A DNA stretch of 18,423 bases from a virus (Duplodnaviria > Heunggongvirae > Uroviricota > Caudoviricetes): IMG/VR virus record IMGVR_UViG_2667527959_000011, positions 1-18,423 of that record, one strand, 5' to 3'. Shown in pieces: positions 1 to 18,423 of the stretch. The position numbers and the translations under genes were made by a program. Position 1 is the stretch's first letter, and each line of letters begins with the position of its first letter. A model generated the notes under the pieces. The model was not told where the DNA came from, made no database searches, and saw nothing but the letters and a program-made list of their open reading frames with translations.

Positions 1-100
1 AGAAATGAAATGACTGAGTCAGCCGAGAAGAATTTCCCCGCTTATTCGCACCTTCCTTAGGTAAAGTTATTTTTAAGTAATCGAGCAACTTTCAGCCCTC

Positions 101-589: not shown

Positions 590-608
590 TTTTCTTACCC
601 AACAGAAT

Positions 609-625
609 AAATTAATTAGAGCAAT
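609..625 (-). promoter_or_regulatory. C1 repressor operator-like site just upstream of ssb
   Basis: Minus strand reads ATTGCTCTAATTAATTT, 16/17 match to the P1 C1 operator consensus ATTGCTCTAATAAATTT (consensus recalled from the literature). Lies about 20 bp upstream of the ssb GTG. Confidence 0.55.
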
Positions 626-758
626 AATGTATATCTTTGAAACGTGGTTAACAAGTGATTTGCATTATCCTGTGCCTTCTAAAGGGATCGAGTCAGTCGG
701 TAATGGCTGTGAATGGGTGTTTGTCCTGGAGCGTAAAAAATTCGCTTATGAGGTCTTT

Positions 759-1316: not shown

Positions 1317-1563
1317 ACTCCGGCAGCTCCGCCGACTTTCGACAATGAAGTTATCGCTGGCGGCGATAGTTTTCGACTCGATTTTCATGGCGGTATATGT
1401 GCTCAATGAGACGTGGCCACTGGAACCGCTCTTGTATGCTGGGCTTAGGCTGTGCCTGACATTTTTGAGCATGGCTGCAAGATTGATGCAGCAGAAAGAA
1501 ACCGCTTCAGATTGTCCACGCCGCGCGGTGCGCAAATATATGGCACGCAGGCGAAGGCGATAA
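1309..1563 (+). CDS. Hypothetical small membrane protein, possibly holin-like
   Basis: 84-aa ORF whose ATG overlaps the lyz stop (caATGAAtaa). Two hydrophobic stretches and an Arg-rich C-terminus (ARRRRR). An intrinsic terminator follows directly, suggesting co-transcription with lyz. Confidence 0.35.
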   Translation: MNKLRQLRRLSTMKLSLAAIVFDSIFMAVYVLNETWPLEPLLYAGLRLCLTFLSMAARLMQQKETASDCPRRAVRKYMARRRRR

Positions 1564-1576
1564 TAGTTAACGAGAA

Positions 1577-1602
1577 CCCCGGCAGCCGCCGGGGCTATTT
1601 TT
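1577..1602 (+). terminator. Rho-independent terminator after the lyz operon
   Basis: GC-rich hairpin CCCCGGC-agcc-GCCGGGG (1577-1594) followed by ctaTTTTT. Confidence 0.7.
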
Positions 1603-1607
1603 GATGG

Positions 1608-2627
1608 TTATTTAAACGGGTTGATTGAATTATTAAACGTGATGATGCTTGTCTCACGCGGTGCCTTGACGTTAGCCGCTTGCGGAACCTCCTTAATTTT
1701 CTTGGTGACAGGCAAGTTGCGCGCGCCAACTTTGATCAGAGATTCGAAAAGTGTGGCAACGATTTTTGCATCACCAGGTTCTTTGAGGCGGAATGCGTCT
1801 TTTTGGGCGGCGGAGACGAAGATCGGGAGGTTATCCAGTTCGTCTTGCATCGCTGCCAGCACATCATCGCGGATACCCGCTGTTTCCTCCAGCAAAGCAA
1901 TTCGCGCTTCAGCATCTGCGATCTTGGCCATTGCTTCGAGGTGGCGGCCCTGGCTTTCGAGTAGTGCGGTTTCCAGTTCTGCCGTACGCTCTGTCGCCTC
2001 CACCATCATTTCCAGTTCAGCCATTTTGCCATAATGGGATATAACGGCCTGCACTGACTCGTCGGAGTACCCATGCGCCGCCAGGGATTCTGCCAGTAGA
2101 GATTTAGAATCCGCGCTTTCAAACATTCCGGCGCTGGCAGGATGATCCAGACTGATATAGTTCGGCGTTGTCACATAATCCACACCATGGAAGCTGGTGG
2201 TTACAGCGATTTTCCCGGACTCGCGCCCGCCAGTGGCCCAGCTCCAGCCACCAGCACGGCTTTCGATCATCGCGGCGACAATTTTACCCGGCTCTGTGTT
2301 AAGAATTTCCTGTGTATGGGTAACGATGCCGTTGTCGTCAACAGATATAGCCACTGTTCGGCACGCTGGAACATTGTCGATTACGACCGGGCGACCTTCC
2401 ACCATGATTACGCTGGTTTCTGGTACTTCCAGTTTGCCGGTCAGCTGTCGGCGACCGTGACCGTAATAGCCGAAAAGCTCTCCAAGGCGTAAACCTTCCT
2501 GAGTTTCCTTGCTTTCAAGCATGGTCTTAACCGCGCTTAATACATACTGTCGCCCGTTCTGGCGACCTTTTCGAGCATTGCTATAGAGACAAAAGCGGTC
2601 AGTGACCGTTTTCAAAACATCAGTCAT
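1608..2627 (-). CDS. pro: Putative prohead protease / head-processing protein
   Basis: 339-aa ORF with GGAGGG SD 7 nt upstream of the ATG. Assignment is by position relative to prt and darB as in P1; no catalytic motif was verified by eye. Confidence 0.6.
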   Translation of the reverse strand: MTDVLKTVTDRFCLYSNARKGRQNGRQYVLSAVKTMLESKETQEGLRLGELFGYYGHGRRQLTGKLEVPETSVIMVEGRPVVIDNVPACRTVAISVDDNGIVTHTQEILNTEPGKIVAAMIESRAGGWSWATGGRESGKIAVTTSFHGVDYVTTPNYISLDHPASAGMFESADSKSLLAESLAAHGYSDESVQAVISHYGKMAELEMMVEATERTAELETALLESQGRHLEAMAKIADAEARIALLEETAGIRDDVLAAMQDELDNLPIFVSAAQKDAFRLKEPGDAKIVATLFESLIKVGARNLPVTKKIKEVPQAANVKAPRETSIITFNNSINPFK

Positions 2628-2739
2628 TATATTGCCCTCCAGCTACCTTACCTAATGTCTGTTGGTATATTGGCTTTGATAACATTTTCGTCCGTGTATT
2701 CATTTATATACTCATTAGTTTCAATGTATTATATAGAAC

Positions 2740-3872
2740 ATGAAGCGTGCCTATAAATATCGATTCTATCCAACTCCCGAACAAACCGAGCTATTAGCCC
2801 GGACTTTTGGGTGTGTGCGTTTTGTCTATAACAGCCTCCTTCGCTGGCGCACCGATGCGTACTACGCACGCCATGAGAGGGTCGGCTATGCACAAGCCAG
2901 CGCCAAATTAACGGCACTGAAAAAAGAACCAGAATTCGCCTGGCTGAATGACGTTTCCTGCGTCCCCCTCCAGCAGTCTCTGCGCCACCAACAAACGGCT
3001 TTTGCTAACTTTTTCGCCGGGCGTGCTGCATACCCAGTTTTTAAGAGCAAGCGGCATAAACAGGCCGCAGAACTAACTGCCAGCGCATTTAAATACCGTG
3101 ACGGCAAGCTGTGTACATGGCAAAGAGCAAAGAGCCGTTAGATGTTCGCTGGAGCCGTCCGTTGCCGTCTGCTCCATCCACTGTCACTATCACCAGGGAT
3201 GCTGCCGGACGATATTTTGTATCCTGTCTCTGCGAGTTTGAGCCTGTATCACTGCCGATCACCGTTTCCACGGTCGGCATTGATATTGGTTTAAAAGATT
3301 TGTTCGTCACCGATACCGGTTTCAAAACTGGCAATCCTCGACACAACGCTAAATACGCGAAGCGATTAGCAGTGTTACAGCGCAGATTGAGCAAGAAACA
3401 AAAAGGCTCAAAGAACCGCGCCAAAGCACGTTTAAAGGTTGCCCGCCTCCACGCGAGAATAGTCGATTGTCGGATGGATAACCTGCATAAGTTATCCCGC
3501 AAACTGATTAACGAAAACCAAGTTGTTTGCGTCGAATCCCTTAAAGTGAAAAACATGATCCGTAACCCGAAGCTGTCTAAAGCAATAGCTGACGCAGGCT
3601 GGAGCGAACTTGTACGCCAACTCCAGTACAAAGGAGAATGGGGTGGACGTAGCATTGTCGCTATCGACCAGTATTTCCCTTCTTCCAAACGTTGCAGCAG
3701 TTGCGGCTTCACCATGCAAAAAATGCCTCTTAATATTCGTAAATGGCACTGCCCGGAATGTGGCGCAGAGCATGATCGTGATATTAACGCGGCCCGTAAT
3801 ATAAAAGCTGCCGGGCTGGCAGTGTTAGCCCTTGGAGAGTCTGTAATTCCTAAGCCGCTTCATGTGGTTTAG
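2740..3872 (+). pseudogene. tnpB: IS200/IS605-family TnpB (OrfB) RNA-guided nuclease, interrupted by a -1 frameshift near 3102-3141
   Basis: N-terminal fragment (2740..3141) starts MKRAYKYRFYPTPEQ, the typical OrfB N-terminus. C-terminal fragment (3111..3872, frame -1) carries RuvC-I (VGIDIGLKD), RuvC-II (VVCVESLKVKN), a zinc finger (CSSCG...CPECG) and RuvC-III (HDRDINAARNI). No tnpA is adjacent. Confidence 0.8.
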
Positions 3873-3904
3873 GTCGGACTCTGTGAATTGGGAATGTTTG
3901 CCGT

Positions 3905-5635
<1,731 letters not shown>

Positions 5636-5679
5636 TTAATTAGAATAATTCGCATCGTGTTTTAACGGAATTTAACACT

Positions 5680-5689
5680 AGTCACTTGT
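5680..5689 (-). promoter_or_regulatory. Conserved 10-bp motif (ACAAGTGACT on minus strand), candidate late-promoter element upstream of prt
   Basis: Forward AGTCACTTGT is repeated exactly at 15381-15390. In both places the minus strand reads ACAAGTGACT, then 5 bp, then a weak -10-like hexamer (TAAATT or CAGAAT). Confidence 0.3.
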
Positions 5690-5701
5690 TAAGGATTACC
5701 A

Positions 5702-8700
5702 ATGAACAAGCTATCTATGGGGGTGTTTCGCTGTTCAAGTGTCAGCGAAATATTGAAATACATTAGGGCAATAACATCTCACCGAGCGCCGATTAAATAC
5801 GGCGTGGAAAAGGTGGAAGGCAAAAGCTATGACCAACTGCGCCGGGAGGCGAATCAGAAGGCGATAGATTTGCTTAATTCGCTGGTGGACGGCGCGACAC
5901 TGACAGATGAACAGCGCCAGATCCTGGCTGGGTACACCGGTGAAGGCGGCATTGGCGGGTCCGTCTCCGAATATTACACACCAAAGCCGATCGCTGAAGG
6001 TGTCTGGGAGATCATGAAGCTCTACGGCGCGGACGTAGGTAACACTCTGGAACCATCGGCGGGCACCGGCGTTTTTAATGAGACAAAACCGGTTGGTACG
6101 GTGATGACCGCGACTGAGATCAGCAGTGTTTCCGGTCGTATAAACCAGCTGTTACATCCGGAAGACAGCGTACAGATTTCCCCGTTCGAACAACTGGCTG
6201 TAAGCACGCCTAACGATTCATTCGACCATGTTGTGGGTAACGTTCCGTTCGGCGGTCGTGATAACACACGCAACATCGATAAGCCTTACGCAGAAGAAAC
6301 GGATATGGGGTCTTACTTCATGCTCCGCATGCTGGACAAGATAAAGCCAGGCGGATTCATGTGTGTGATTGTGCCGCCGTCCATTGTTTCAGGTTCAAAC
6401 ATGAAGCGGTTGCGTCTGCGCCTATCCCGTAAAGCTGAATTTCTTGGCGCTCACCGCTTGCCTACCGGTACTTTTGACGCAAACGGGACCAGTACGGTCG
6501 TTGACGTGGTGCTGATGCGCAAACATCCGGCGGAGATGGCTGAGAAAATCCCCCTGGTGGATGAAGGCACTCTTGAATCGGCAAATGTGCTTTGGCCAAC
6601 GTTTATTTCTGGCAAGTGGTTTGAAAAGGACGGCCGCCGGTTTGTTCATGGCACCCAGGAGAAGGGATTCCAGGGGCGTATTGAGGTTCGTGCCGACGGG
6701 CAGATTGATAACCAGGCTCTTAAAGCGAAGCTGATTCATCGTTTCGAAAGTCGTATCGACTGGTCTTTGCTCGATATGGCTGAACCGTCACCGACCGCAG
6801 ATGTTGTTGATGAAGGGGAAATGCGCTTGATTAATGGCGTATGGCAAAAATATGCTGGTGGTCGCTGGATTGAAGCTGATGCTGGTAAGGAGCTTAAGAT
6901 TGATGCTGCCAGTTATGGCGCGGATAGCTGGGAGGCTCTTCAGCGTAACCTGACTACAACAGAAGGCCGTCTCGGTATGACATTTACCCAGATGGCAAAT
7001 GTCCGCGATAAGTACACCACATCAATCAGCGACGATATGGTGCAGCTGGTGGACTGGATTAACAGCCAGCCTGAAAAATACCGTGAACGCTTGTATCGTG
7101 GGGCGATGATTGGCCGGATGTTAATTGAATATCAGGATATGAAGGCCGCCGGGCATAGTGCTGAACAAATCGAACAGCAGCGCCTTTCTCTGGTGTCCCG
7201 TTTGCAGGCAGAGATTGACCGTTTTGGTAACCCCGGTCGCGGTCCGATAGCTAAATTATCGGGAAGCGGTGCGCGCGCCTGGTTTGCTTTCCGTGGTGCA
7301 ATTAAGCTGGATGGCACTATTTCTGACGAGCTAACAGGAAAGCTGGTTACGCATGATTCCAGCGCCAGTTATGACTCCACCAGCTATCAGGACACCCTGC
7401 GTTATCTCTATAGCGATCTTACCCGCGATCCAATCCAGCTCGATGATTTCCGCCTTGCGTTTACCGGCGAACTGCCAGCCAGTGATGAAGAGTTGCTTAA
7501 TTTATTGGCCAGCACCCCTGGTATTGCGGTTTCACCGTATGGCGGGATTGTTCCGTTCGCCCGCGCCACCAGCGGCGACATTAACGAGATAGTGGCTCCA
7601 AAACAGGAATTCCTTGCCACACTCCCCGACGGTCCAGTAAAGAACAACGTCCTTAATCAGCTGGCAGCGATCGAAGAGAAGCGCATCAAGACGCCAGCAG
7701 AGAATATCCGCTTTAAGCTCAATAGCCGTTGGTTCGACCGCTCCGTCATTCTGGAGTTTTTGCAGGAAAACGGCTATCCGGATCTGCGCTATGTGCAGTC
7801 AGTGCAGCTGGAAGGCGACGAAATGGTTTCTGACACCTATCACGGTGGTGATGGTCTGTTCGTCGGGCACCGATACGGTGTCGTCCAGCGCAAGGATAAA
7901 GAAACAGGCGAGATCCGCTACGAGTGGGACCGTAAATCAGGTGAAAACGCGACTGGGTTCCCGGCACAGCTGGAAAAGTATCTCAATGGTGCGCGTATCG
8001 GTGGCAAAGATAGCGCGACGGCGAACGGCTACCGCGAGCAGATGGCACTGCTTGAGGACCAGTTCAATAAGTGGATCAAGACGCACGATCGCTACGATGA
8101 GCTGGTTGCCAAATACAACGATGTGTTCAATAGCAATATCCCGTATGAACACTCTGGCGATCCGCTTGTGTTGAAGGGATTAAGCGGTAAGCGCCAGCCA
8201 TTTGATTACCAGAATAGCGAGGTGCGCCGACTGTCCGAAGATGGGCGCGGCATCCTGGGCTTCGGCACCGGGCTGGGTAAAACCACGACCGCGCTGGCGC
8301 TTGAGGCGTTCAACTATGAGAACGGTCGCTCTACCCGTACTGCGTATGTAGTGCCTAAATCAGTGCTGGAAAATTGGTATTACGAAGCAAAAGAATTCCT
8401 GAGTGAAGAGGCATTCAGTAACTACCTGTTCGTCGGTCTTGATGTGCTGATGGATGGCGATCAGATTCGCCAGGTGCCGGTGCTCGATGAGAACGGTAAA
8501 CCTGTTCTTGGTACTGATGGCACTCCAGTTATGCGCGATGCTCTTAAGCTGGCAGATGAAGCCACTATCACGGCGCGGATGAACGCGATCCCGCACTCAA
8601 ATTACCGTGCAGTCGTGTTTACCAAAGAACAATACGCCCGCATTCCGCTACGTGATGACACCGTAGATGAGCATGCACAGGATATGCTTTATGACTTCGT

Positions 8701-11700
8701 TGCCGCCGGGCGCGTAGCCAGTGCAATGGATTCCGATTCCCATCGCAAAGAGGCGGCGCGTCGCCGGGTATTGTCGGAGTATTCAGATACCGGTACCGAA
8801 AAAGCAGAGAAGTATCCGTACTTTGAGGATATGGGCTTCGACAGCGTGATCGCCGACGAAGGCCACAACTACCGCAATAGCTATAAAAATGGTCGCGAAG
8901 CGTCACAGCTGGCCTATCTGCCCACCAGCGCGGTAGCGCAATCGGCGCGAGATATGGCAATCAAAAACGCGTACCTGATGAAAAAGAATGGCGGGCGCGG
9001 ACCGGTTCTCCTGACTGCAACGCCAGTCGTTAACACCCCGATCGATGCATACAACATGCTTTCTCATGTTCTGCCGAAGGAATACTGGCAGAAGATGGGG
9101 ATCTACGGTCCTGATGACTTCGTTAAACTCTTCGGCAAGACCAGGCTGGAAACGGTACAGAAAATCAGCGGTGAAGTTGAAGAAAAAATGGCGCTGGTGG
9201 GCTTTGAAAACCTTGATGCGCTGCGCGGCATATTCCATCGCTGGACAACGCTTAAAACGGCGGAAGACGTTAAGGATACCGTGGAGATCCCGGAGCTTGA
9301 CGAACACCAGCAGGATGCACCACTTACTGAAGAACAACTGGCGGCGTATGAAGAATTACGCCAGCAGGCGGAAGCGGCGGCCAAAGCCAACAATGGCGTA
9401 ACGACCTCGATCGATGAAGACGGAGTGATTGAGCACGAGAAAGCCCGTCCGATCTTCTCAATAATCAGGGATATGGACCGCGTATGTACTGACATGGACC
9501 TGTACTATCGCCGGATCACCTATCGTTTCCTGCCGGAGTACGCCGATGCGGTGCAGCAGCTGGCGGACAGTTTGCCTAAACAAGCCACCAGCGAAGACGA
9601 CGACAGTGATGATTCAATCACGCAGCAATCGCAATACTCCCTGATAGATAAGGGCGAGTTTATTCAGTTGCAGGTTCCGGAAGCGTTCGAGCAGGAAGTG
9701 AATAAGCGCCTGGCCAGGTTTGGCATTGACGAACAGACCGTAACTCACCCCGTTACGCCCAAATACGCGAAGCTGATTGCCACGCTGAAGGAGTTTTTCC
9801 CGGAAGGGAAGCAAATCATCTTCACCGACGAAAAAACGCAGCACCAGAAGCTCAAGCGCATTATCTGCAATGCTCTTAACCTTGAACCTTCAAAGGTAGG
9901 GATCCTGAATGCTCAGACGGTTGCCGAGGCAGGTAAAACCGGTAAGAAACTGAAAGCGGTTAAACCGCCGAAAGAGTTACCGGATGAACCAACAGATGCA
10001 CAGATAGCGAAATACAACGAGCAAATGGCTCTGTATGACGCCTATATCGCGCAGCAAAATGAAATGTCGTTGGGCGGTCTGGAAAAGATTGCAGCCGACT
10101 TCCAGGAGGGCCGGACTCCGATCATCATCTGCAACAAAAAGGCAGAGGTGGGTATCAACCTGCATCGAGGAACGACTGACATCCATCATCTGACGTTGCC
10201 ATGGACACCAGCCAGTATCGCACAGCGTAACGGTCGCGGTGCTCGAGTTGGCTCCAACCGTGCAAGCGTTCGCGTTCACTACTACTGCGGCAAGGGGTCT
10301 TTCGATGAATACCGATTGAAGACGCTGAAGCGTAAAGCAGGCTGGATCTCCGATATCCTCCGTTCAGATAAGTCGGAAATGGAGAACGCCGACGCCAATG
10401 ACATGATCGAAATGCAGATGTATACCGCGAAGGATGACGGCGAACGTCTGGCAATGATGCAGGTTCAAATGGATAAGGCGAAAGCTGCGAAACGCGCTCG
10501 CCAGAAAGAACAGGCTACTATCGACCTTCAGAATTACATCAAGGCGCAGCACGCAGCTGGCGAGGATGTGGAGGTACTTACCGCTGAATTAGAGCGAAGC
10601 AAAGCGGAACTTGAAAAGACCACCGCCGAGGTAGCTAAATTCAAACAGGCGGTAATGGCCAAAGCAGCTGATAACGCAGACTGGAAAGCCCGCTGGGGTA
10701 GCGTCCATCACACAGACCGTACGTTGTTAGCACAGTATCGCGCGTCGTTGAAAAGCGCCATTCAGCGCAAGGCTAATATCTCTCAGGCCATCTCCCGCTA
10801 TGAGAAATTATTGAACCGTACTCAGAAGGCCGCGACGGATATCAAACGCCTGCGCCCGCTGGTGGAGGATGCAATAAATAAAGGCATTCTGGATGTTGAT
10901 CCTGATCTGGTTAACCATGCGAATGAGTTCCTTGTTATCGGCGATCGCTCATGGCGTGTAGGCCAATACTACGATTGTGCCGGTGATATCGTTCGCATTA
11001 AGTCGCTGGACTTCGACAGCCAGCGCGCAGACGTGGAGATCATCTTTACCTTAAGAGGCACCAAATCGGGTAACTGGGATGTGAAGACGCTGGATAAACA
11101 GGTTGATGTAACTCCCGATGAAGATGCTGTTATGCAGAAAATCAGTGGTGGCGTCTCCATCGCCGGGATTAACGACATCATTTCCTGTGACGATTTCTAC
11201 CGTTTCCAGCAGCGCGGCATGATCAAAATCACTGACTCGTACGGCGTTCAGACTACAGAGTCAGGCTATAGCATTGATTTTGTTGGTACCTATACGGACC
11301 CACTGAAGCATGCGGTTTACCCGGATCGCCGTGACGGCGCGCTGAAGTCGTCAATTGCAAAATGGGTGCTTGGTATGATGTCGGAAGGGAATAACCGCCA
11401 GATCCGTTCGGCAGAAACATTCCTGGTTGAATTGTTTGGCTCCAATTATGGCGATGTAATCGCGTCATACGGAGATACGCTATCCCCTGAAGCAATTCAG
11501 GAGAAAATAGCGGATGCGATCGCCAGAATGCCGGAAAAAACAAGCCAGGGGTCTACTCGTAACGGGGATTCTGAACTTGAAGTCACCAATGCCATTTTCG
11601 GTACCAATGAGTTCCGGGCGTCAGATTATGAGATCACCACAGCACAGTTTGGCACCATTGGCATTTACAGCAATAAAGACGAGATCAAGCAGGCAATGGA

Positions 11701-12469
11701 CGCAGCAAGTGCGCGCATTGCAGCAGAACGGAAAGCCAATCTGAATCATGCAGTCGCCGCGCTGACTCAATCGTGGGTAACAGCAATCAGGGAGGCCGCC
11801 ACCACAGGAAAAATCACACCGGCAATTGCGGATGTCGTAAACGACGGCTCTAAATTTATGGATGCCTATAAAATGGATGCGGTGCAGTTGCCATCAGCCT
11901 ATGGCCAACTCAGCTATCGCATGACCTACAACCTGGTATCAATGTTTACTGACCTTGCCATCCTTGGGCTGGTGGACCTTAACGAGGTTACGCCGGAATT
12001 ACTCAGCATGCGCAAGAATCATGTTGAGATATTGCAGAGAATTAACACGGTTCTTGCCGGGCGCACCGATGAAGAGAAACAGGCCGACGCTGATCGGATA
12101 AACCTGGCCCTAGGCAACATCACGGAGGAAGAAATTGCCGCCAGAAACGAGAAACAAGAAGAGTTATCATCAATACAGGGTGATGCCACCAGCATAGCTC
12201 AGTCTCTTGGGCTGAATTATCGCGTATCCACCGCCGACCTGAAGATGATGTACGCACCAAAATTCGCCGCTGGCGAGGTATTTGGGCTTCAGGAAGCCTC
12301 CGGCATGAAAGGGGTTCTTTTCCGTGCGAAAGACGCAATCAAGGCGAAATTCGGCGCTCGCTGGTTGCCAGCGAAGGCGAAGAACAGCGATTTCCCGGGT
12401 AACTGGTGGATTATCGAGACAAAACACAACGTGGCGGACGTTCTGGCCGTCATCCAACAATACGCATAA
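5702..12469 (+). CDS. darB: DarB-like anti-restriction protein (N6-adenine methyltransferase fused to a superfamily-2 helicase)
   Basis: 2255-aa ORF. Methyltransferase motif I LEPSAGTGVF (~6050) and NVPFG (NPPF-like) motif; helicase Walker A GFGTGLGKTTTAL (~8260), DEGH box VIADEGHNY (~8850) and motif VI QRNGRGARVG (~10230). Size and architecture match P1 DarB as I recall it. Confidence 0.88.
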   Translation: MNKLSMGVFRCSSVSEILKYIRAITSHRAPIKYGVEKVEGKSYDQLRREANQKAIDLLNSLVDGATLTDEQRQILAGYTGEGGIGGSVSEYYTPKPIAEGVWEIMKLYGADVGNTLEPSAGTGVFNETKPVGTVMTATEISSVSGRINQLLHPEDSVQISPFEQLAVSTPNDSFDHVVGNVPFGGRDNTRNIDKPYAEETDMGSYFMLRMLDKIKPGGFMCVIVPPSIVSGSNMKRLRLRLSRKAEFLGAHRLPTGTFDANGTSTVVDVVLMRKHPAEMAEKIPLVDEGTLESANVLWPTFISGKWFEKDGRRFVHGTQEKGFQGRIEVRADGQIDNQALKAKLIHRFESRIDWSLLDMAEPSPTADVVDEGEMRLINGVWQKYAGGRWIEADAGKELKIDAASYGADSWEALQRNLTTTEGRLGMTFTQMANVRDKYTTSISDDMVQLVDWINSQPEKYRERLYRGAMIGRMLIEYQDMKAAGHSAEQIEQQRLSLVSRLQAEIDRFGNPGRGPIAKLSGSGARAWFAFRGAIKLDGTISDELTGKLVTHDSSASYDSTSYQDTLRYLYSDLTRDPIQLDDFRLAFTGELPASDEELLNLLASTPGIAVSPYGGIVPFARATSGDINEIVAPKQEFLATLPDGPVKNNVLNQLAAIEEKRIKTPAENIRFKLNSRWFDRSVILEFLQENGYPDLRYVQSVQLEGDEMVSDTYHGGDGLFVGHRYGVVQRKDKETGEIRYEWDRKSGENATGFPAQLEKYLNGARIGGKDSATANGYREQMALLEDQFNKWIKTHDRYDELVAKYNDVFNSNIPYEHSGDPLVLKGLSGKRQPFDYQNSEVRRLSEDGRGILGFGTGLGKTTTALALEAFNYENGRSTRTAYVVPKSVLENWYYEAKEFLSEEAFSNYLFVGLDVLMDGDQIRQVPVLDENGKPVLGTDGTPVMRDALKLADEATITARMNAIPHSNYRAVVFTKEQYARIPLRDDTVDEHAQDMLYDFVAAGRVASAMDSDSHRKEAARRRVLSEYSDTGTEKAEKYPYFEDMGFDSVIADEGHNYRNSYKNGREASQLAYLPTSAVAQSARDMAIKNAYLMKKNGGRGPVLLTATPVVNTPIDAYNMLSHVLPKEYWQKMGIYGPDDFVKLFGKTRLETVQKISGEVEEKMALVGFENLDALRGIFHRWTTLKTAEDVKDTVEIPELDEHQQDAPLTEEQLAAYEELRQQAEAAAKANNGVTTSIDEDGVIEHEKARPIFSIIRDMDRVCTDMDLYYRRITYRFLPEYADAVQQLADSLPKQATSEDDDSDDSITQQSQYSLIDKGEFIQLQVPEAFEQEVNKRLARFGIDEQTVTHPVTPKYAKLIATLKEFFPEGKQIIFTDEKTQHQKLKRIICNALNLEPSKVGILNAQTVAEAGKTGKKLKAVKPPKELPDEPTDAQIAKYNEQMALYDAYIAQQNEMSLGGLEKIAADFQEGRTPIIICNKKAEVGINLHRGTTDIHHLTLPWTPASIAQRNGRGARVGSNRASVRVHYYCGKGSFDEYRLKTLKRKAGWISDILRSDKSEMENADANDMIEMQMYTAKDDGERLAMMQVQMDKAKAAKRARQKEQATIDLQNYIKAQHAAGEDVEVLTAELERSKAELEKTTAEVAKFKQAVMAKAADNADWKARWGSVHHTDRTLLAQYRASLKSAIQRKANISQAISRYEKLLNRTQKAATDIKRLRPLVEDAINKGILDVDPDLVNHANEFLVIGDRSWRVGQYYDCAGDIVRIKSLDFDSQRADVEIIFTLRGTKSGNWDVKTLDKQVDVTPDEDAVMQKISGGVSIAGINDIISCDDFYRFQQRGMIKITDSYGVQTTESGYSIDFVGTYTDPLKHAVYPDRRDGALKSSIAKWVLGMMSEGNNRQIRSAETFLVELFGSNYGDVIASYGDTLSPEAIQEKIADAIARMPEKTSQGSTRNGDSELEVTNAIFGTNEFRASDYEITTAQFGTIGIYSNKDEIKQAMDAASARIAAERKANLNHAVAALTQSWVTAIREAATTGKITPAIADVVNDGSKFMDAYKMDAVQLPSAYGQLSYRMTYNLVSMFTDLAILGLVDLNEVTPELLSMRKNHVEILQRINTVLAGRTDEEKQADADRINLALGNITEEEIAARNEKQEELSSIQGDATSIAQSLGLNYRVSTADLKMMYAPKFAAGEVFGLQEASGMKGVLFRAKDAIKAKFGARWLPAKAKNSDFPGNWWIIETKHNVADVLAVIQQYA

Positions 12470-12502
12470 CAGGAGCGCCCGGTTCGCCGGGCGTCGCATA
12501 AT

Positions 12503-12943
12503 ATGGCCACATTATCTGATACAATAAAACCGAATAAAACATATCTTGAGGCGGTGCTGCGTACGGCGTTGTTAGGAAAGACAGAAGACGAATACGTTGA
12601 TTTCTTCCTGTCAGGGCTACGCGGGCGATTACTGAAAAATCCCCGCCTGTACCGCAGTTATGGCCCATACTGGCCGGAAATTAAAAAATTATTACTGGAG
12701 CGCGGTTATGGTAATTTCGGTCGTCTCGTTGACCGTGACGTTCGCAAAATTTACCGTTATGACCGCCCGGCGCTGACACTCATAGCCGCGACGCTCTACA
12801 GCCAGGAGCGTTTTGATAATGGTCAGATATACTCAGCCTGGCATTTACTGCCAGTGCCTGAAGAAGTTGACGACCAGGACTATGAGTTTGAGTCTTACGA
12901 TTTGGAAGTTGAAGCCTTGGCACAGGCTGGAGAGAAAACTTGA
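12503..12943 (+). CDS. Hypothetical protein, possible Ulx homolog
   Basis: 146-aa ORF immediately downstream of darB; its stop overlaps the start of the next ORF (cTTGA). Assignment by synteny only. Confidence 0.45.
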   Translation: MATLSDTIKPNKTYLEAVLRTALLGKTEDEYVDFFLSGLRGRLLKNPRLYRSYGPYWPEIKKLLLERGYGNFGRLVDRDVRKIYRYDRPALTLIAATLYSQERFDNGQIYSAWHLLPVPEEVDDQDYEFESYDLEVEALAQAGEKT

Positions 12944-13188
12944 AAAAGCGATACTACACAGTAAAGCATGGGACGCTACGAGCATTACAAGAGTTTGCTG
13001 ACAAGCATAACGTTGAGGTGCGCAGGGAAGGGGGAAGTAAAGCTCTGCGTATGTACCGTCCGGATGGGAAATGGCGAACGGTCGTCGATTTCAAAACTAA
13101 CAGCGTTCCCCAGGGCGTCCGTGACCGGGCATTCGAAGAATGGGAGCAGATCATCATAGATAACGCATTGCTCCTGAATGCTGATTAA
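12940..13188 (+). CDS. lxc: Lxc-like small protein (C1 co-repressor)
   Basis: 82-aa ORF with TTG start overlapping the upstream stop and GGAG 8 nt upstream. Size and position match P1 lxc. Confidence 0.5.
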   Translation: MKKRYYTVKHGTLRALQEFADKHNVEVRREGGSKALRMYRPDGKWRTVVDFKTNSVPQGVRDRAFEEWEQIIIDNALLLNAD

Positions 13189-13225
13189 TTTATCGGGCAG
13201 TTTTATCTGCCCGATAAATTTTTAT
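13187..13225. terminator. Hairpin terminator between convergent lxc and the SIR2-like gene
   Basis: Perfect 14-bp inverted repeat AATTTATCGGGCAG (13187-13200) / CTGCCCGATAAATT (13207-13220) with 6-nt loop, then a T-run. Arm 1 overlaps the lxc stop codon. Confidence 0.65.
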
Positions 13226-13234
13226 CGACCACAA

Positions 13235-14542
13235 TTACACTATATTCTTAACTATAAGGTTGGCGTCCTTCAAGGTGCCTAATGTTTCAATGTGGTTTTT
13301 TATCATTAATCTATTTGAGGCAATTATTGCAGGCCATCGTGTTTCCCAAGCTCTGTAAGCATACCAAGAAACTCCCCAATTCCTTTCTTTACTCATATGA
13401 CCCATCGAGTATTCAACTGCGTCTAAATATGTTTTTTCATACTTAGTATTGCTAACCTCTATGATGCTTCCAAAATATATAAGCCATTTTGCCAACTGTT
13501 CATATTGCTCCCACGCTCCGTTATTCCTTGTTAACTTTCTCTTTTTTTCTATTATCCTTTCGAAAAGAGAAACGACTTTATCATCATTCCAATCTAAACC
13601 TTCCGATATAATTGATGATATAATTTGATAAAATGAATCCTCTAATTTAAGATATTCATTTTTATAAGTATAAGCCCCCGAAACAACTTTTCTGATATTT
13701 TCGCGCGCTCTTTCAATGATGTCTTTAATGAGAGATATCTTATAACTTAATCGACTAAAGAAACAATCTATTTCTGTATTGTCAATTACCCTTATACCAA
13801 AGCAATAGAAGTAATAATCCTTCATATCTTGACTTACTTTGTTGCGAGATATCAAAAAGATATTAGAGCACAGGGCATTATTTTTCGAAAATTTTTTATA
13901 GTCATTTATAATTGCTTTAAGATTTGTGTCGCTTAAAGAATACCCTAATATCGCAACTGTATTTTCATGCAGCATCGTACTAAGTTTTCGTGAAAAATAA
14001 GTATCGGAATTTATAAATCTGAAGTAATCATCTGAAGTGACAATCATATTTTTTGGCGAATCAATAGAGCCATGAACATGATATATTTTCACCTTGGATG
14101 GATACTTTGGAATTGGCAGGCCGGGCGTGATAGACTGTACACTTTCATCTCCAACCAAGCATTCAGCCAACTTGTCATAATTTGTTGTAATGACACGGAA
14201 TGAGTTTTTTTGGAAAAAATCTTTTATATTTGATATGTCTTCTCCAAGTTGAATTGGAGATATGATGTCAACAATTTCATCATAAATCGACTTACCCTCA
14301 ATATTGAGCTTCAAAGATAGTATTTGTGCGGCTTCTTCAAGACTCAGTGCTGGTGGTTTATCATCAGGGAATAACGTGTCTTCCAACTTTTTGGCATTGT
14401 GAACTTTGCTGCAAACTTTTTTTAATAGTTCCTTCCACGTTGGAGCTTCACCGTTCGAGACTGCCTTTGAAAAGCCAGTCCCGGTAAATAGACAAAGCCT
14501 GCTTGTAGCGGCAGCGTATGCTAACTCAACATATTCGCTCAT
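13235..14542 (-). CDS. SIR2-like (SIR2_2/DUF4020-type) protein, candidate NAD+-depleting defence effector
   Basis: 435-aa ORF with GGAG SD 8 nt upstream of the ATG. Motifs: LFTGTGFS...APTWKELL near the N-terminus, VITTNYDKL, KIYHVHGS, MIVTSDDY and VAILGYSLSD. No CxxC...CxxC zinc ribbon. About 180 C-terminal residues have no recognisable motif. Gene is markedly AT-rich compared with its flanks. Confidence 0.8.
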   Translation of the reverse strand: MSEYVELAYAAATSRLCLFTGTGFSKAVSNGEAPTWKELLKKVCSKVHNAKKLEDTLFPDDKPPALSLEEAAQILSLKLNIEGKSIYDEIVDIISPIQLGEDISNIKDFFQKNSFRVITTNYDKLAECLVGDESVQSITPGLPIPKYPSKVKIYHVHGSIDSPKNMIVTSDDYFRFINSDTYFSRKLSTMLHENTVAILGYSLSDTNLKAIINDYKKFSKNNALCSNIFLISRNKVSQDMKDYYFYCFGIRVIDNTEIDCFFSRLSYKISLIKDIIERARENIRKVVSGAYTYKNEYLKLEDSFYQIISSIISEGLDWNDDKVVSLFERIIEKKRKLTRNNGAWEQYEQLAKWLIYFGSIIEVSNTKYEKTYLDAVEYSMGHMSKERNWGVSWYAYRAWETRWPAIIASNRLMIKNHIETLGTLKDANLIVKNIV

Positions 14543-14597
14543 TACTTACTCCATTTACTTATAGTTCTATGGAGAAGTATACCCTAATGCATTGACG

Positions 14598-14625
14598 TTT
14601 ATAGATAATTTCCTTTTCCAGTTAA
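14598..14625 (-). promoter_or_regulatory. Candidate sigma70 promoter for the SIR2-like gene
   Basis: On the minus strand: TTAACT, 16-bp spacer, TATAAA. The -10 overlaps the stop codon of the upstream mat-like gene. Confidence 0.3.
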
Positions 14626-15240
14626 CTCCCCTTTAGGCACCCGTTTTTGTGCCAGTGTTTGGGTTCCGCGAATTATGTTAATCAGAGGGCTTAGTAACGA
14701 TGATTCCTGGCGGGCATCAACTTCTCCTGCCATTGCCCTAATGTAGTCGGCGCTTGCAACGTTGTTATATTCCGTTGCGAAGCAGCATAACAACGTCAGA
14801 ACGTGCTCTGTCGTTATTTCGCTCCAGTTGATGTTGAAAAATTCATCGCCTTTTTTGTCATGTTCGGAATCGAAGATGCTTTGGTGAAGGATGTATTTGC
14901 CGGATTCCTTGCGCGGTAACTTGATCGCTTTCTGGCGTTCCAATTCCTTGTAAATCTGCATCGCTTCAATCAGTACCGGTCTGCCGTTCATGAAGGGATC
15001 ACGCAACCTTACACGCTGGCCAACTCGACCGGTAATAAAGCTGTTTTCCTCTTCCACCAGCACGATAAAACCCTTTTCCTCTTTTTCTCGCAATTCGCGC
15101 AGCAGCTGGAGTTCCATATCGCGGCGGCGTTCAGGGTAGCTGGTCCGCTCAGCCATTATCAGCTCATTGTTGATCCATGCGGCAGTCATTGACGCCGGTT
15201 TGCCGACGCTCATCGAAACAACGCATATTTTCTTATCCAT
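14599..15240 (-). CDS. Hypothetical protein, possible Mat homolog
   Basis: 213 aa from the ATG at 15240. The ORF track extends it to a GTG at 15267, which would place a terminator-like hairpin inside the coding region. Assignment by position between ref and the res-mod slot. Confidence 0.45.
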   Translation of the reverse strand: MDKKICVVSMSVGKPASMTAAWINNELIMAERTSYPERRRDMELQLLRELREKEEKGFIVLVEEENSFITGRVGQRVRLRDPFMNGRPVLIEAMQIYKELERQKAIKLPRKESGKYILHQSIFDSEHDKKGDEFFNINWSEITTEHVLTLLCCFATEYNNVASADYIRAMAGEVDARQESSLLSPLINIIRGTQTLAQKRVPKGELTGKGNYL

Positions 15241-15250
15241 AGCGCCCCTA

Positions 15251-15278
15251 CAAAAAAGAAAAGCCACCAGCGGCGGCT
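15251..15278 (-). terminator. Terminator-like hairpin plus U-tract in the leader of the mat-like gene
   Basis: Minus strand reads AGCCGCC-gct-GGUGGCU (one G-U pair) followed by UUUUCUUUUUU, ending about 10 nt before the ATG at 15240. Confidence 0.4.
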
Positions 15279-15380
15279 TAGCAATACAACTGAAGGTAGC
15301 GCCCGGTACTCAGACTGTGCCGTCCATGGAATATTTGAAAAGGGATCCATCCGTACCGGGCGTGTGATGATTCTGACTGA

Positions 15381-15390
15381 AGTCACTTGT
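15381..15390 (-). promoter_or_regulatory. Second copy of the 10-bp ACAAGTGACT motif, upstream of the mat-like gene
   Basis: Exact repeat of the 5680-5689 motif. An upstream TTGACA (minus strand) is present and a 10-bp inverted repeat (15300-15309 / 15353-15362) lies downstream in the leader. Confidence 0.3.
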
Positions 15391-15428
15391 CAGTTGTCAA
15401 TCATTTATCATTAAAAATAATATATTTA

Positions 15429-15991
15429 TTAGTGCATGATGTTTGCCATCTCATAGGCGTCAGCCAGTAACTCCATCTCTGACTTGTTCAGTAGGGTGAA
15501 TTCTTTCTTGCCTCCAACCACACCATCGGCATGAACAGGGACCAGCCAGGGGTATTTTGCTCTTACTTCAGTCGGTGCTGCATGCTGGTGGTGCCATCTC
15601 TACAAAGTGGCAATTGCTTTTTATGACAACCCGGCGCGGTACGACCGGCGATATGGTGCAGAGACACCTCATTAGATATTACTCCATGCATATAGCAGGC
15701 AATGCAGGGGAGAGTGCCAAGAGCATTGGCGATGCGCCGTTCCTCCGCCGTTGGTGTTCTCCCCTTCAAGCCACGAGATTTTATTTTTACCGCGCTTTTC
15801 CGCGTTTTGCTGGCTGGTGGGCGCTCTTTCTGTTTAGCGATACGGCGGTCGATAGTATCCCGCATTTTCTGATATTGAGATTCTCGCCAGACCGGATCAG
15901 CCAACTTCTCCCGTTGCCGAGCGATCGCTCGTTCTCTGGCTGCCTTCTGCCACTTGCGGCACTGTTCAATTTTTTGTTCGATTGTTTTCAT
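15429..15991 (-). pseudogene. ref: Ref (HNH-type recombination enhancement endonuclease) with a frameshift
   Basis: N-terminal 131 codons (MKTIEQKIEQ...LPLCR) are in one frame; the remaining 55 codons (WHHQHAAPTEV...ANIMH, stop at 15429-15431) are open in the -1 frame. The break falls in the minus-strand run TGTAGAGATGG (forward ~15597-15603). Removing two bases restores a 186-aa product. Confidence 0.8.
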
Positions 15992-15997
15992 ATGGTC

Positions 15998-16024
15998 AAA
16001 AAAAAGGCGGCCTAATAGCCGCCT
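15998..16024 (-). terminator. Intrinsic terminator 6 nt upstream of the ref start codon
   Basis: Minus strand reads AGGCGGC-uauuag-GCCGCCU followed by seven U (forward A-run 15998-16004), then gacc and the ATG. Confidence 0.6.
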
Positions 16025-16083
16025 ATGATGTCAAGGAGTGAAGTAATGGCAACGTCTTCGTAGTTGACAAAAACTGCGACTCA

Positions 16084-16107
16084 ATTATAGCAACCAATTA
16101 GAGCAAT
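16084..16107 (-). promoter_or_regulatory. C1 operator(s) overlapping the presumptive ref promoter
   Basis: Minus strand reads ATTGCTCTAATTGGTTGCTATAATTGA. The first 11 bp match the operator consensus, a second TTGCTATAAT half-site overlaps, and a perfect TATAAT -10 is at forward 16084-16089. Confidence 0.55.
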
Positions 16108-16212
16108 TAAAGTTGTTTATTTATCGCGAATCACATTTTTTCACTTCAGTACCTGTGTGCTATACTCCTTCTTGATTGATTGGATGCGGAATACAAACCC
16201 GCTCTTTTGTGC

Positions 16213-16244
16213 AGCCTGGCTCCTTGCCAGGCTTTTTTTTATTT
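16213..16244 (+). terminator. Plus-strand intrinsic terminator overlapping the cra stop codon
   Basis: AGCCTGGC-tcctt-GCCAGGCT followed by a run of T ending at 16240. On the minus strand no U-tract follows, so it is directional. Confidence 0.6.
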
Positions 16245-16550
16245 CATCATGGAAGCTGTTAACGCTTTGGACCTTGCTGAACTGATTGAGAGGGCTTTGT
16301 CAACGTGCCCCAAAAATTCGCCAAACTCAGACATCACTTTAGCAAAACCGCGCCGTGCTTCTTCCTCGGTGGCATTCATCACGAAATGTTCAGCACCACG
16401 CATACTTTTGACAGGGAACGCAACGGATATTGAATCAATATCAGGCATTCTATCGCTCAGCTTTACAGTGACAATGACGGCTGGCGACTGAATATTAGTG
16501 CTTACAGACAGCACTACATATTTTCCGTCGATGTTGAAATCCTTTCGCAT
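16239..16550 (-). CDS. Hypothetical protein downstream of cre, possible Cra
   Basis: 103-aa ORF of balanced composition between cre and ref. The overlapping plus-strand ORF (16180..16491) runs through the terminator hairpin and is considered spurious. Confidence 0.45.
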   Translation of the reverse strand: MRKDFNIDGKYVVLSVSTNIQSPAVIVTVKLSDRMPDIDSISVAFPVKSMRGAEHFVMNATEEEARRGFAKVMSEFGEFLGHVDKALSISSARSKALTASMMK

Positions 16551-16566
16551 ATGTCACCATAAATAT

Positions 16567-16583
16567 CAAAGAATTAGAGCAAT
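16567..16583 (-). promoter_or_regulatory. C1 operator-like site between cre and the downstream ORF
   Basis: Minus strand reads ATTGCTCTAATTCTTTG, 13/17 overall with the first 11 bp matching the consensus. Confidence 0.5.
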
Positions 16584-16600
16584 CATTTACGCGTTAATGG

Positions 16601-17632
16601 CTAATCGCCATCTTCCAGCAGGCGCACCATTGCCCCTGTTTCACTATCCAGGTTACGGATATAGTTCATGACAATATTTACGTTGGTCCAGCCACCAGCT
16701 TGCATGATCTCCGGTATTGAAACTCCGGCACGGGCCATATCTCGCGCGGCTCCGACACGGGCACTGTGTCCAGACCAGGCCAGGTACCTCTGGCCAGAGT
16801 CATCCTTAGCCCCGTAAATCAATCGGTGAGTTGCTTCAAAAATCCCTTCCAGGGCGCGAGTTGATAGCTGGCTGGTGGGTGATGGCGAGGCAACACCATT
16901 TTTTCTGACCCGGCAAAACAAGTAGTTATTCGGATCATCAGCCACACCAGAGACAGAAATCCATCGCTCGACCAGTTTAGTTACCCCCAGGCTAAGTGCC
17001 TTCTCTACACCCGCGGTACTAACCAGCGTTTTCGTTCTGCCAATATGGATTAACATTCTCCCACCGTCTGTACGTGAGATATCTTTAACCCTGATCCTGG
17101 CAATTTCGGCTATACGTAACAGGGTGTTATAAGCGATCCCCAGAAATGCCAGATTACGTATGTCCTGGCAGCGATCGCTATTTTCCATGAGTGAACGAAC
17201 CTGGTCGAAATCAGTGCGTTCGAACGCCAATGCCTGTTTTGCACGTTCACCGGCATCAACGTTTTCTTTTCGAATCCGCCGCATGACCAGTGAAACAGCA
17301 TTGCTGTCACTTGGTCGTGGCAGCCCGGACCGACGATGAAGCATGTTTAGCTGGCCCAAATGTTGCTGGATAGTTTTTACTGCCAGACCGCGCGCCTGAA
17401 GATATAGAAGATAATCGCGAACATCTTCAGGTTTTGCGGGAAACCATTTCCGGTTATTCAACTTGCACCATGCCGCCCATGACCGGCAAACGGACAGAAG
17501 CATTTTCCAGGTATGCTCAGAAAACGCCTGGCGATCCCTGAACATGTCCATCAGGTTCTTGCGAACCTCATCACTCGTTGCATCGACCGGCAATGCAGGC
17601 AAATTTTGGTGTACGGTCAGTAAATTGGACAT
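16601..17632 (-). CDS. cre: Cre tyrosine site-specific recombinase
   Basis: 343-aa protein starting MSNLLTVHQNLPALPVDATSDEVRKNLMDMFRDRQAFSEHTWK and ending MVRLLEDGD. Near-identical to Cre as I remember it, with about three substitutions. Confidence 0.98.
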   Translation of the reverse strand: MSNLLTVHQNLPALPVDATSDEVRKNLMDMFRDRQAFSEHTWKMLLSVCRSWAAWCKLNNRKWFPAKPEDVRDYLLYLQARGLAVKTIQQHLGQLNMLHRRSGLPRPSDSNAVSLVMRRIRKENVDAGERAKQALAFERTDFDQVRSLMENSDRCQDIRNLAFLGIAYNTLLRIAEIARIRVKDISRTDGGRMLIHIGRTKTLVSTAGVEKALSLGVTKLVERWISVSGVADDPNNYLFCRVRKNGVASPSPTSQLSTRALEGIFEATHRLIYGAKDDSGQRYLAWSGHSARVGAARDMARAGVSIPEIMQAGGWTNVNIVMNYIRNLDSETGAMVRLLEDGD

Positions 17633-17639
17633 TTAACAC

Positions 17640-17861
17640 TCAGATAATGGTTTTAAGTAAAGTGTACAGGATCGGCTCTGCCTTTACCTGTTTATGGTTC
17701 TCGTCATAGAAACGCCAACGACCGCGACTGCGTTCTATCTTTTCTTCACCGCGCGATAATGACAGTTGACAACTATCACGATCAAACCCTTTTGCCCGCC
17801 AGTAACCACGATTTTTCTCAAGCTCAAGATGAGTGGACACTTTAGCAGCTGAATATCCCAT
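17640..17861 (-). CDS. Hypothetical 73-aa upstream ORF in the cre leader
   Basis: AGGTG SD 4 nt upstream of the ATG. Its stop (TGA, 17640-17642) lies 7 nt before the cre ATG, which has no strong SD of its own. Confidence 0.35.
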   Translation of the reverse strand: MGYSAAKVSTHLELEKNRGYWRAKGFDRDSCQLSLSRGEEKIERSRGRWRFYDENHKQVKAEPILYTLLKTII

Positions 17862-17957
17862 TTTTCACCTCTGATTGATTGGTGGTGCTAAGTGCGCTAC
17901 GCGAAATCTGTAGGACTGACACCGCCAATTTTTCACAGATTTTACGTAGCGCAACCT

Positions 17958-17979
17958 TGATCAAATGATCAAGTGATCA
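17958..17979. promoter_or_regulatory. Triple TGATCA (Dam GATC) cluster in the cre promoter region
   Basis: Three TGATCA hexamers at 8-bp spacing (GATC at 17959, 17967, 17975), about 330 bp upstream of cre. Confidence 0.5.
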
Positions 17980-18050
17980 CTATTTGACCTGCCAAGGTAT
18001 TGAACTGTATGGATTTACAGGTAAATTGATCATATTCAATAACCCTTAAT

Positions 18051-18084
18051 ATAACTTCGTATAATGTATGCTATACGAAGTTAT
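18051..18084 (+). other. loxP: loxP recombination site
   Basis: Exact ATAACTTCGTATA-ATGTATGC-TATACGAAGTTAT: 13-bp inverted arms around the canonical 8-bp spacer. Confidence 0.98.
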
Positions 18085-18127
18085 TAGGTCTGAAGAGGAG
18101 TTTACGTCCAGCTGCGCATAAAAATCA

Positions 18128-18144
18128 AGAATTATTAGAGCAAT
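18128..18144 (-). promoter_or_regulatory. C1 operator-like site
   Basis: Minus strand reads ATTGCTCTAATAATTCT (14/17). The forward strand here also partly matches the consensus, so the site is partly palindromic. Confidence 0.5.
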
Positions 18145-18204
18145 AAATTTTGAGAGAAAAATCCCACTCCACCAGCCAAAAACTGGATTGTTTTTCATAG
18201 TTGT

Positions 18205-18231
18205 TTGACAATTGCTCTAATAAATTATAGT
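18205..18231 (+). promoter_or_regulatory. Candidate promoter with an embedded C1 operator
   Basis: TTGACA (18205-18210) directly followed by ATTGCTCTAATAAATTA (16/17) and a TATAGT -10-like hexamer at 18226-18231. The 15-bp spacer is short for sigma70. Confidence 0.5.
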
Positions 18232-18423
18232 TTTGCCGCCGTTACGTAATACGACTTTGGATTCACTATTTAATGTGTCTTCAGCGTTGTAGAGCGGCTC
18301 AGAAGGAAATGAGCAAACAGGGAAACCTTATACAACGGCATTACAGCTATGCATTGCTCATCTTAGGAAGGTGCGAATAAGCAGGTCATTTCTTCCCAAG
18401 CTGACTCGCTGATTAAAATTTCG

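Follow-up and report, generated by a model that had tools for sequence, protein, structure and literature searches.

We analysed an 18,423-nucleotide stretch of DNA from a tailed virus (IMG/VR record IMGVR_UViG_2667527959_000011, positions 1 to 18,423; hereafter the window), which is a segment of a P1-like phage-plasmid and is 97-99% identical over its whole length to Escherichia coli IncY plasmids of about 95 kb. The gene under study is a SIR2-family gene located at 13235-14542 on the minus strand, an intact open reading frame (ORF) of 435 codons and a stop codon, with an ATG start. The SIR2 motifs quoted in an earlier note on this DNA were all present in the translation: GTGFS at residues 21-25, PTWKELL at 34-40, TTNYD at 119-123, HVHGS at 155-159, TSDDY at 169-173 and LGYSLSD at 199-205. 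That note had also remarked on the missing zinc-ribbon cysteines, and the translation agrees: the six cysteines of the protein (C17, C44, C128, C224, C246 and C259) are scattered and form no CxxC pair, and the protein therefore has no sirtuin zinc ribbon. The GC content of the gene is 34.7%, and that of 500-nt windows inside it is 30-34%, against about 50% in the flanks. An identical protein is encoded on 95 public contigs, and the ORF is a real one and not a chance ORF. A GGAG sequence (14549-14552) lies six nucleotides 5' of the ATG, within a 56-nt leader (14543-14598, minus strand) which runs from the mat stop to the SIR2 start. The protein matched the PHROG 7567 profile (phrog_7567, listed in PHROGs as of function unknown) from residue 1 to 434 and from profile position 1 to 434 of 434, with an E-value of 1.7e-247. 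The gene is annotated as "SIR2 family protein" in 59 plasmids and elsewhere bears the automatic name "NAD-dependent protein deacylase".

The SIR2 gene lies between lxc (modulator of C1; 12940-13188, plus strand), which is annotated in P1, SJ46 and RCS47, and mat (maturation control; 14599-15240, minus strand), which is co-oriented with the SIR2 gene and immediately upstream of it. When the window was aligned with RCS47, SJ46 and two further plasmids that carry a SIR2 gene, backbone identity was lost right after the lxc stop codon, of which 13188 is the final base, and returned at the mat stop codon (14599). The exchangeable cargo cassette is therefore bounded to 13189-14598, from the lxc stop to the mat stop, and holds one gene, as the earlier note had proposed. 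Both flanks are conserved, and Lxc was 100% identical in 15 viral contigs. No direct repeats and no transposon-like boundaries were found at the cassette ends, and, as there are no repeats, the cassettes were probably exchanged through recombination within the flanking conserved sequence. A perfect 14-bp inverted repeat (AATTTATCGGGCAG / CTGCCCGATAAATT) with a 6-nt loop is located at 13187-13220, within cassette-specific sequence, and is probably a terminator hairpin shared by the convergent lxc and SIR2 genes; each type of cargo brings its own hairpin directly 3' of the lxc stop.

Comparison of the slot among P1-like genomes showed that it is empty in RCS47 and occupied by the res and mod genes of EcoP1I in P1 (NC_005856), in the orientation opposite to that of the SIR2 gene. 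The earlier note had named these two genes correctly, but had placed an IS1 beside them, whereas the record has an IS5 inside mod. The slot of SJ46 encodes a 373-residue RelA/SpoT protein with a full-length match to PDB 7ZTB (833 bits), the structure of CapRelSJ46, a validated single-protein anti-phage system (Zhang et al. 2022; PMC9712102). Other cargos found among 703 plasmids with matching flanks were YaaC-family, GNAT, PIN, DUF2971 and EAL proteins, which are also encoded by single genes; the DUF2971 cargo resembles PDC-S31 of PADLOC. The mat-lxc junction is thus a cassette-exchange hotspot of P1-like phage-plasmids. The literature searched held no description of this site as a defence hotspot, no paper linking P1-like elements with SIR2, and no mention of the RefSeq accessions.

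The N-terminal part of the protein, from residue 1 to about 257 (13772-14542, minus strand), is a Rossmann-type, NAD-binding SIR2 domain. The profile searches that the earlier note had proposed gave a match to Pfam SIR2_2 (PF13289) with a score of 84.3 bits against a cut-off of 24.5 (E-value 1.1e-23), which covered residues 117-252 and profile positions 3-140 of 141 and was the only Pfam domain in the protein. The classical SIR2 family (PF02146) was not matched even at an E-value of 1 or less. The PADLOC matches were all to defence sirtuins and to the SIR2 part only, PDC-S25 being the best, followed by ThsA, SIR2-type LmuA, Dsr2 and Dsr1, and none of the PD-T4, PD-T7 and PD-lambda models of PADLOC matched. 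NCBIfam held no family for the protein. These results bear directly on the idea of a CobB-like housekeeping deacetylase carried by chance, which has in its favour nothing but the automated deacylase names. With neither a PF02146 match nor a zinc ribbon, a deacetylase of this type was rejected. The best relatives were defence sirtuins rather than CobB-type enzymes with zinc-binding cysteines, the gene sits in a low-GC mobile cassette within a defence hotspot, and we regard such an origin as extremely improbable.

An AlphaFold2 (AF2) model built on the homologue alignment had a mean predicted local distance difference test (pLDDT) score of 84.7. In the SIR2 domain of this model strands alternate with helices, and the pLDDT of successive blocks ranged from 58 to 91, with the lowest values in the blocks 161-190 and 201-230. 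A Foldseek search of the PDB, the structural check suggested beforehand, gave DSR2 as the closest structure (E-value 5.5e-12), followed by ThsA and KomC, with E-values from 5e-12 to 1e-9, while a structure search of the same type in BFVD gave nothing significant. The order was similar when phmmer was run against solved structures: DSR2 was the closest (E-value 4.5e-10, residues 14-282 of the query), followed by KomC (Kongming) and ThsA. Asn121 of the TTNYD motif (codon 14180-14182, minus strand) is predicted to be catalytic and aligns with Asn133 in the ITTNYD motif of DSR2, a catalytic residue of that enzyme. The second predicted catalytic residue is His157 (codon 14072-14074, minus strand), which aligns with His171 of DSR2; the H171A structures of DSR2 in the PDB carry a mutation of this histidine. 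The earlier note had placed the catalytic histidine in HVHGS; the motif is present, and the equivalent of His171 is specifically the second histidine within it. Both N121 and H157 were invariant in 39 of 39 homologues. By homology to DSR2, ThsA and KomC, the domain would be expected to have NADase chemistry.

The last 180 or so residues, which had been put forward earlier as a possible sensor, form a separate helical-repeat domain in the AF2 model, an all-helical alpha-solenoid modelled with confidence over residues 258 to 435 approximately (13238-13771, minus strand). Its fold is not SLOG, Macro or any other known receptor of nucleotide signals. Its aromatic core is invariant (W344, Y347, W353, W393, Y396, W399 and W403), and so are N410 and R411. 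When residues 268-435 were searched with phmmer against 1.84 billion representative sequences, 76 matches were obtained, all of them proteins of about 420-480 residues or fragments, and each of the 10 distant full-length matches that were scanned carried an N-terminal SIR2_2 domain. This arrangement of two domains is therefore constant and peculiar to the SIR2 family studied here, and no case of the C-terminal domain shuffled onto another effector was found among the 76 matches. Compared with its 59%-identity relatives, the window protein showed 48-52% identity in the C-terminal domain. No positive selection on this domain was seen, as the ratio of nonsynonymous to synonymous substitution rates (dN/dS) was 0.09-0.13 in both domains, and the SIR2 protein is therefore under purifying selection. 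We propose that the solenoid is a regulatory or sensor module. According to a study of DSR2 (PMC11850899), the C-terminal domain which confers trigger specificity on that protein is an alpha-solenoid and binds the phage trigger.

The strongly conserved aromatic surface of the C-terminal domain would also be expected if it bound a fixed substrate. SIR2 folds allow ADP-ribosyl transfer as well as hydrolysis, and the protein could be an NAD+-dependent transferase, either an ADP-ribosyltransferase or a deacylase, which acts on a specific phage or host macromolecule bound by the solenoid; the automatic database name "NAD-dependent protein deacylase" points in the same direction. However, this name is an automatic transfer, the protein has no zinc ribbon and no PF02146 match, and all of its nearest characterised relatives (DSR2, ThsA and KomC) are NADases. 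We consider a transferase of this kind unlikely.

We compared the neighbourhoods of the family at 64 loci from Gamma-, Beta-, Alpha- and Zetaproteobacteria, Desulfobacter, and actinobacterial and Caenarcaniphilales metagenome-assembled genomes (MAGs), by clustering three neighbours on each side. No neighbour family was common to more than 4 of the 64 loci, and the small recurring groups that were examined came from closely related genomes. Pfam and PADLOC scans of 104 immediate neighbours revealed no recurrent partner. A TIR, HerA, Argonaute, STAND or SMC partner was found neither in the window nor recurrently across the 64 loci, which agrees with the earlier observation that no such gene (TIR, HerA, Argonaute or STAND) is adjacent; SMC_N was detected in 2 of the 104 neighbours. 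Since no neighbour is conserved, the SIR2 gene is a single-gene system. The SIR2 gene often sits among defence genes or in prophages, and many unrelated defence genes were present among the neighbours, namely dGTPase, MADS, PDC-S31, a type I restriction endonuclease, AbiU, AbiD, GajB, PD-T7-1, PD-T7-5 and, at one of the 64 loci, ThsB. The Halomonas copy is located among HNH, HSDR_N and DUF87 genes, with a single DUF87 gene three genes away. In E. coli chromosomes a 59%-identity homologue lies directly after an integrase, at a prophage edge beside narP/ccm (narP/ccmH); in one strain it is followed by a gene for an AIDA-type autotransporter.

The most divergent full-length subclade (42-44% identity) was that of Acinetobacter, and in all three of its loci a co-oriented gene of about 870 codons lies just upstream of the SIR2 gene. 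Three aconitase matches of Pfam among the 104 neighbours presumably correspond to these genes, which points to conserved chromosomal synteny and not to a partner gene.

The single ThsB-like neighbour, together with the PADLOC profiles of ThsA and SIR2-type LmuA that match the SIR2 domain, could be taken as signs of a split system, in which the gene is only the effector half, is inert alone and depends on an activator located elsewhere (a TIR/ThsB-type protein, a host factor or another P1 gene). A split system would also accord with the high conservation of the C-terminal domain, if the ligand were a conserved small molecule or a host ligand. Nevertheless, no partner recurs in the 64 loci, the alpha-solenoid at the C-terminus is unlike SLOG, Macro and the other known receptors of nucleotide signals, and the one-gene cassette moves among P1 backbones, other prophages and chromosomes. 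A split system thus seems to us quite improbable.

A DNA search found the SIR2 gene in 59 plasmids, with at least 99% identity in 41 of them and 80-90% in the other 18, and a protein search added a third allele, about 59% identical, which is present in other plasmids of about 95 kb. The alleles at 59%, 86% and at least 99% identity occupy the same mat-lxc slot (one representative of each was checked), and the 56-nt leader is nearly identical among all three. SIR2 alleles were found in about 120 of about 700 P1-like plasmids and in none of 50,697 GenBank phage records. Full-length members were present on 28 viral contigs of IMG/VR, 16 of them in the P1 slot and the remaining 12 at loci in which homologues of Mat, Lxc and Ulx were looked for and not found. 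The 86% allele is a recombinant mosaic, with about 97% nucleotide identity over codons 1-120 and about 80% over the rest, and its breakpoint lies just before the TTNYD motif; the larger divergence of its C-terminal part is due to this mosaic structure. Full-length homologues of 52-62% identity were found across Proteobacteria; among the many bacteria that carry them are Xenorhabdus, Pantoea, Klebsiella, Vibrio, Halomonas, Pseudomonas, Paracidovorax and Rhizobium. When a single genome of each species was scanned, about 70 full-length copies were recovered, and they extended to Zetaproteobacteria, Desulfobacter, a Proteiniphilum MAG, an actinobacterial MAG and a Caenarcaniphilales MAG. Given this spread and these contexts, the family behaves as mobile single-gene defence cargo.

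All computational checks suggested in the earlier note agreed with its predictions, and its interpretation is supported at that level. Several results of our analysis underlie the reading that follows: the fold, family and catalytic residues were identified, the gene stands alone, its hotspot also holds validated defences, and the family is linked to prophages and defence islands. We think it fairly probable that the gene encodes a stand-alone, prophage-borne NAD+ hydrolase which acts by abortive infection in the manner of the DSR proteins and is one of the exchangeable cargos of the mat-lxc slot. The SIR2_2 domain with Asn121 and His157 would be the effector, and the C-terminal solenoid (about 175 residues) would keep the enzyme inactive and then activate it. 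Activation would come from the binding of a trigger that is produced when another phage infects the cell, from control of oligomerisation, or from the two together. The active enzyme would convert NAD+ to ADP-ribose and nicotinamide, so that the infected lysogen would stop growing and the invading phage would not complete its cycle; abortive infection would in this way shield sister cells which carry the plasmid prophage. The chemistry, the protection against phages, the trigger, the part played by the C-terminal domain and the expression of the gene in the lysogen are inferred.

Two observations weigh against the simplest form of this reading. First, a crude consensus scan, which can miss real promoters, showed no sigma-70-like promoter either within the 56-nt leader or within the 3' part of mat, and transcription of the SIR2 gene may therefore start at the mat promoter. 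The mat promoter of P1 is annotated as C1-repressed and late-activated, which would be odd for a defence that operates in the lysogen. Second, the family is unusually conserved for an immune sensor, with 52-62% identity across classes and an invariant Trp-rich core. With such conservation and no positive selection, a conserved ligand or an oligomer interface fits better than a fast-evolving detector of phage proteins, and these data suggest a conserved cue or an oligomer interface for the solenoid.

The first of these observations raises the question of a function in the lytic cycle or in counter-defence. The SIR2 gene could be transcribed with mat from the C1-controlled late promoter and act in the development of P1, for example by degrading NAD-derived immune signals or by remodelling host metabolism, near the anti-restriction genes darB and ulx. 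It is co-oriented with mat and starts 56 nt past the mat stop, with neither a promoter nor a terminator detected between them; the P1 annotation gives mat a C1 operator as well as a late promoter; and the anti-restriction functions darB and ulx are only two genes and one gene away, respectively. However, the promoter scan was of the crude kind described above, close full-length homologues are chromosomal and occur in many non-phage contexts and in defence islands, and the other known occupants of the slot, EcoP1I and CapRelSJ46, are bona fide defences. We know of no SIR2-domain anti-defence protein that has been described. The counter-defence alternative, which the earlier note had left standing beside defence, gained no support, and a lytic or counter-defence role appears unlikely.

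The conservation of the solenoid also allows a broader version of the abortive-infection reading, which we advance only tentatively as a possible one. The protein may be a minimal and widespread "mini-DSR" receptor, whose Trp-rich solenoid would respond to a conserved sign of infection (for example a small molecule, nucleic acid or host factor) and not to a fast-evolving structural protein of a phage, and the mat-lxc junction may be a hotspot of single-gene defences, in which case its YaaC, EAL, GNAT, PIN and DUF2971 cargos would be candidate defences.

The remainder of the window has the gene order of a P1-like backbone. The gene ssb (101-589, minus strand) is followed by a lysozyme gene, an IS605-type tnpB (2740-3872, plus strand, two reading frames), darB (5702-12469, plus strand, 2255 residues) and ulx (12503-12943, plus strand); beyond the cassette and mat are ref, c8 and cre (16601-17632, minus strand). 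The mat ORF can be extended to a GTG at 15267, and RefSeq relatives annotate it with 642 nt. When the ref frame (15563-15991, minus strand) was compared with the 561-nt ref gene of plasmid NZ_CP091040.1, a 2-bp AG insertion was found near codon 130, at about 15600-15601, and as a result the product of this RecA-dependent nuclease gene would be 142 residues long instead of 186; ref in the window is either a pseudogene or the site of a sequencing error. The tnpB gene, of the IS605/IS200 family, is split over two frames (2740-3141 and 3111-3872) and has the HTH_OrfB_IS605, OrfB_IS605 and Cas12f1-like TNB domains. Its insertion is shared with NZ_CP015837.1 and is missing in most of the otherwise collinear P1-like plasmids, and it accounts for the thousands of Klebsiella and Enterobacter matches to the window. 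The consensus of the P1 C1 operator (ATTGCTCTAATAAATTT) had three close matches in the window, with one or two mismatches (609-625, 18128-18144 and 18211-18227), when 0.12 are expected by chance. The same consensus scan gave no operator next to mat, where P1 has Omat. No Rfam family was detected anywhere in the window.

SIR2 NADases are established effectors of abortive infection, and the characterised stand-alone members, DSR1 and DSR2, have about 1000 residues. If the abortive-infection reading is true, a 435-residue version, whose compact sensor domain is specific to its family, would offer a tractable and minimal case for studying how a SIR2 effector is switched off and on. P1-like phage-plasmids occur frequently in E. 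coli and Salmonella from clinical and livestock sources, often bring resistance genes with them, and would then shape which therapeutic or transducing phages grow on the lysogens. A slot with two validated defences, EcoP1I and CapRelSJ46, also provides a short list of single-gene candidates. Concepts would remain unchanged unless the trigger or the hotspot proves unusual.

The SIR2 protein family and the mat-lxc exchange site were undescribed in the libraries and papers that we searched. A first comparison is with DSR2 of Bacillus subtilis (PDB 8K98 and 8WKT, among others), which is also encoded by a single gene, has an N-terminal SIR2 NADase domain like that of the window protein, and gave its best match in both sequence and structure, the Asn of ITTNYD and the His of VHG being common to the two. 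Helical-repeat (alpha-solenoid) sensing regions follow the catalytic domain in DSR2 as in the window protein. However, DSR2 has about 1000 residues (SIR2, MID and C-terminal (CTD) domains), whereas the window protein has 435 and lacks the MID and CTD of DSR2. No full-length match to DSR2 was found, the Dsr2 profile of PADLOC being covered from position 121 to 243 of 1222, and none to DSR1 (about 1260 residues); the NCBIfam scores were 26.2 bits for Dsr1 and 22.5 bits for Dsr2, against a cut-off of 1400.

ThsA of the Thoeris system (PDB 6LHX, 8BTO and 7UXT) is of similar size (about 476 residues) and also combines an N-terminal SIR2 NADase with a C-terminal regulatory domain, and it was matched with E-values of 2e-17 in PADLOC and 1e-10 in Foldseek. 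The C-terminus of ThsA is nevertheless a SLOG domain that binds glycocyclic ADP-ribose (gcADPR) from the adjacent TIR protein ThsB, whereas that of the window protein is an alpha-solenoid; the window gene has neither a SLOG/STALD or Macro domain nor an adjacent ThsB. Other SIR2 systems differ by their partners or fusions. The adjacent HerA/DUF87 ATPase of SIR2-HerA (Nezha) is absent from the window and does not recur in the 64 loci. For Lamassu, the LmuA profile was matched only from position 14 to 238 of 433 and the cassette holds no SMC gene. For the short prokaryotic Argonaute system SPARSA and for Avs5 (SIR2-STAND), the window shows no Argonaute or APAZ and no fused STAND NTPase. PDC-S25, a single-gene SIR2 candidate like the window gene, was the best PADLOC match (E-value 1.4e-26), but only its SIR2 core was matched (profile positions 127-289 of 517), and since its flanking regions are not found in the window protein the two architectures are different.

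CapRelSJ46 and EcoP1I share with the window gene the mat-lxc position and are prophage-borne defences against other phages. CapRelSJ46 is, like the putative product of the window gene, a single fused sensor-effector, encoded on the mat strand. Their chemistry is unrelated to that of SIR2 enzymes, as CapRel pyrophosphorylates tRNA and EcoP1I is a type III restriction-modification system.

The published concept nearest to the window gene is sole-Sir2, a candidate CRISPR-supervised immune system from a 2024 preprint (10.1101/2024.12.27.630466). This Sir2 protein of about 440 residues is reported to convert NAD+ to ADP-ribose in vitro and to be structurally similar to the Sir2 domain of DSR2, and the preprint also reports that a close homologue defends E. 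coli from T2 and T4. The size of sole-Sir2 is close to the 435 residues of the window protein, and neither gene has a partner. However, the Sir2 domain of sole-Sir2 is described as C-terminal and preceded by a distinct N-terminal part, whereas the SIR2 domain of the window protein is N-terminal, and the examples of sole-Sir2 are located inside type I-C cas operons. In this comparison, which was made by description only, the two may belong to the same family. The Sir2 homologue of Vassallo et al. (2022) is probably not the window protein, because none of the PD models of PADLOC (PD-T4, PD-T7 and PD-lambda) gave a match. On the homologies given above, the SIR2 protein of the window would resemble DSR2 and ThsA in action and falls outside both families, and its 435-residue combination of a SIR2 domain and a solenoid is a new architecture for a well-known class of defence effector.

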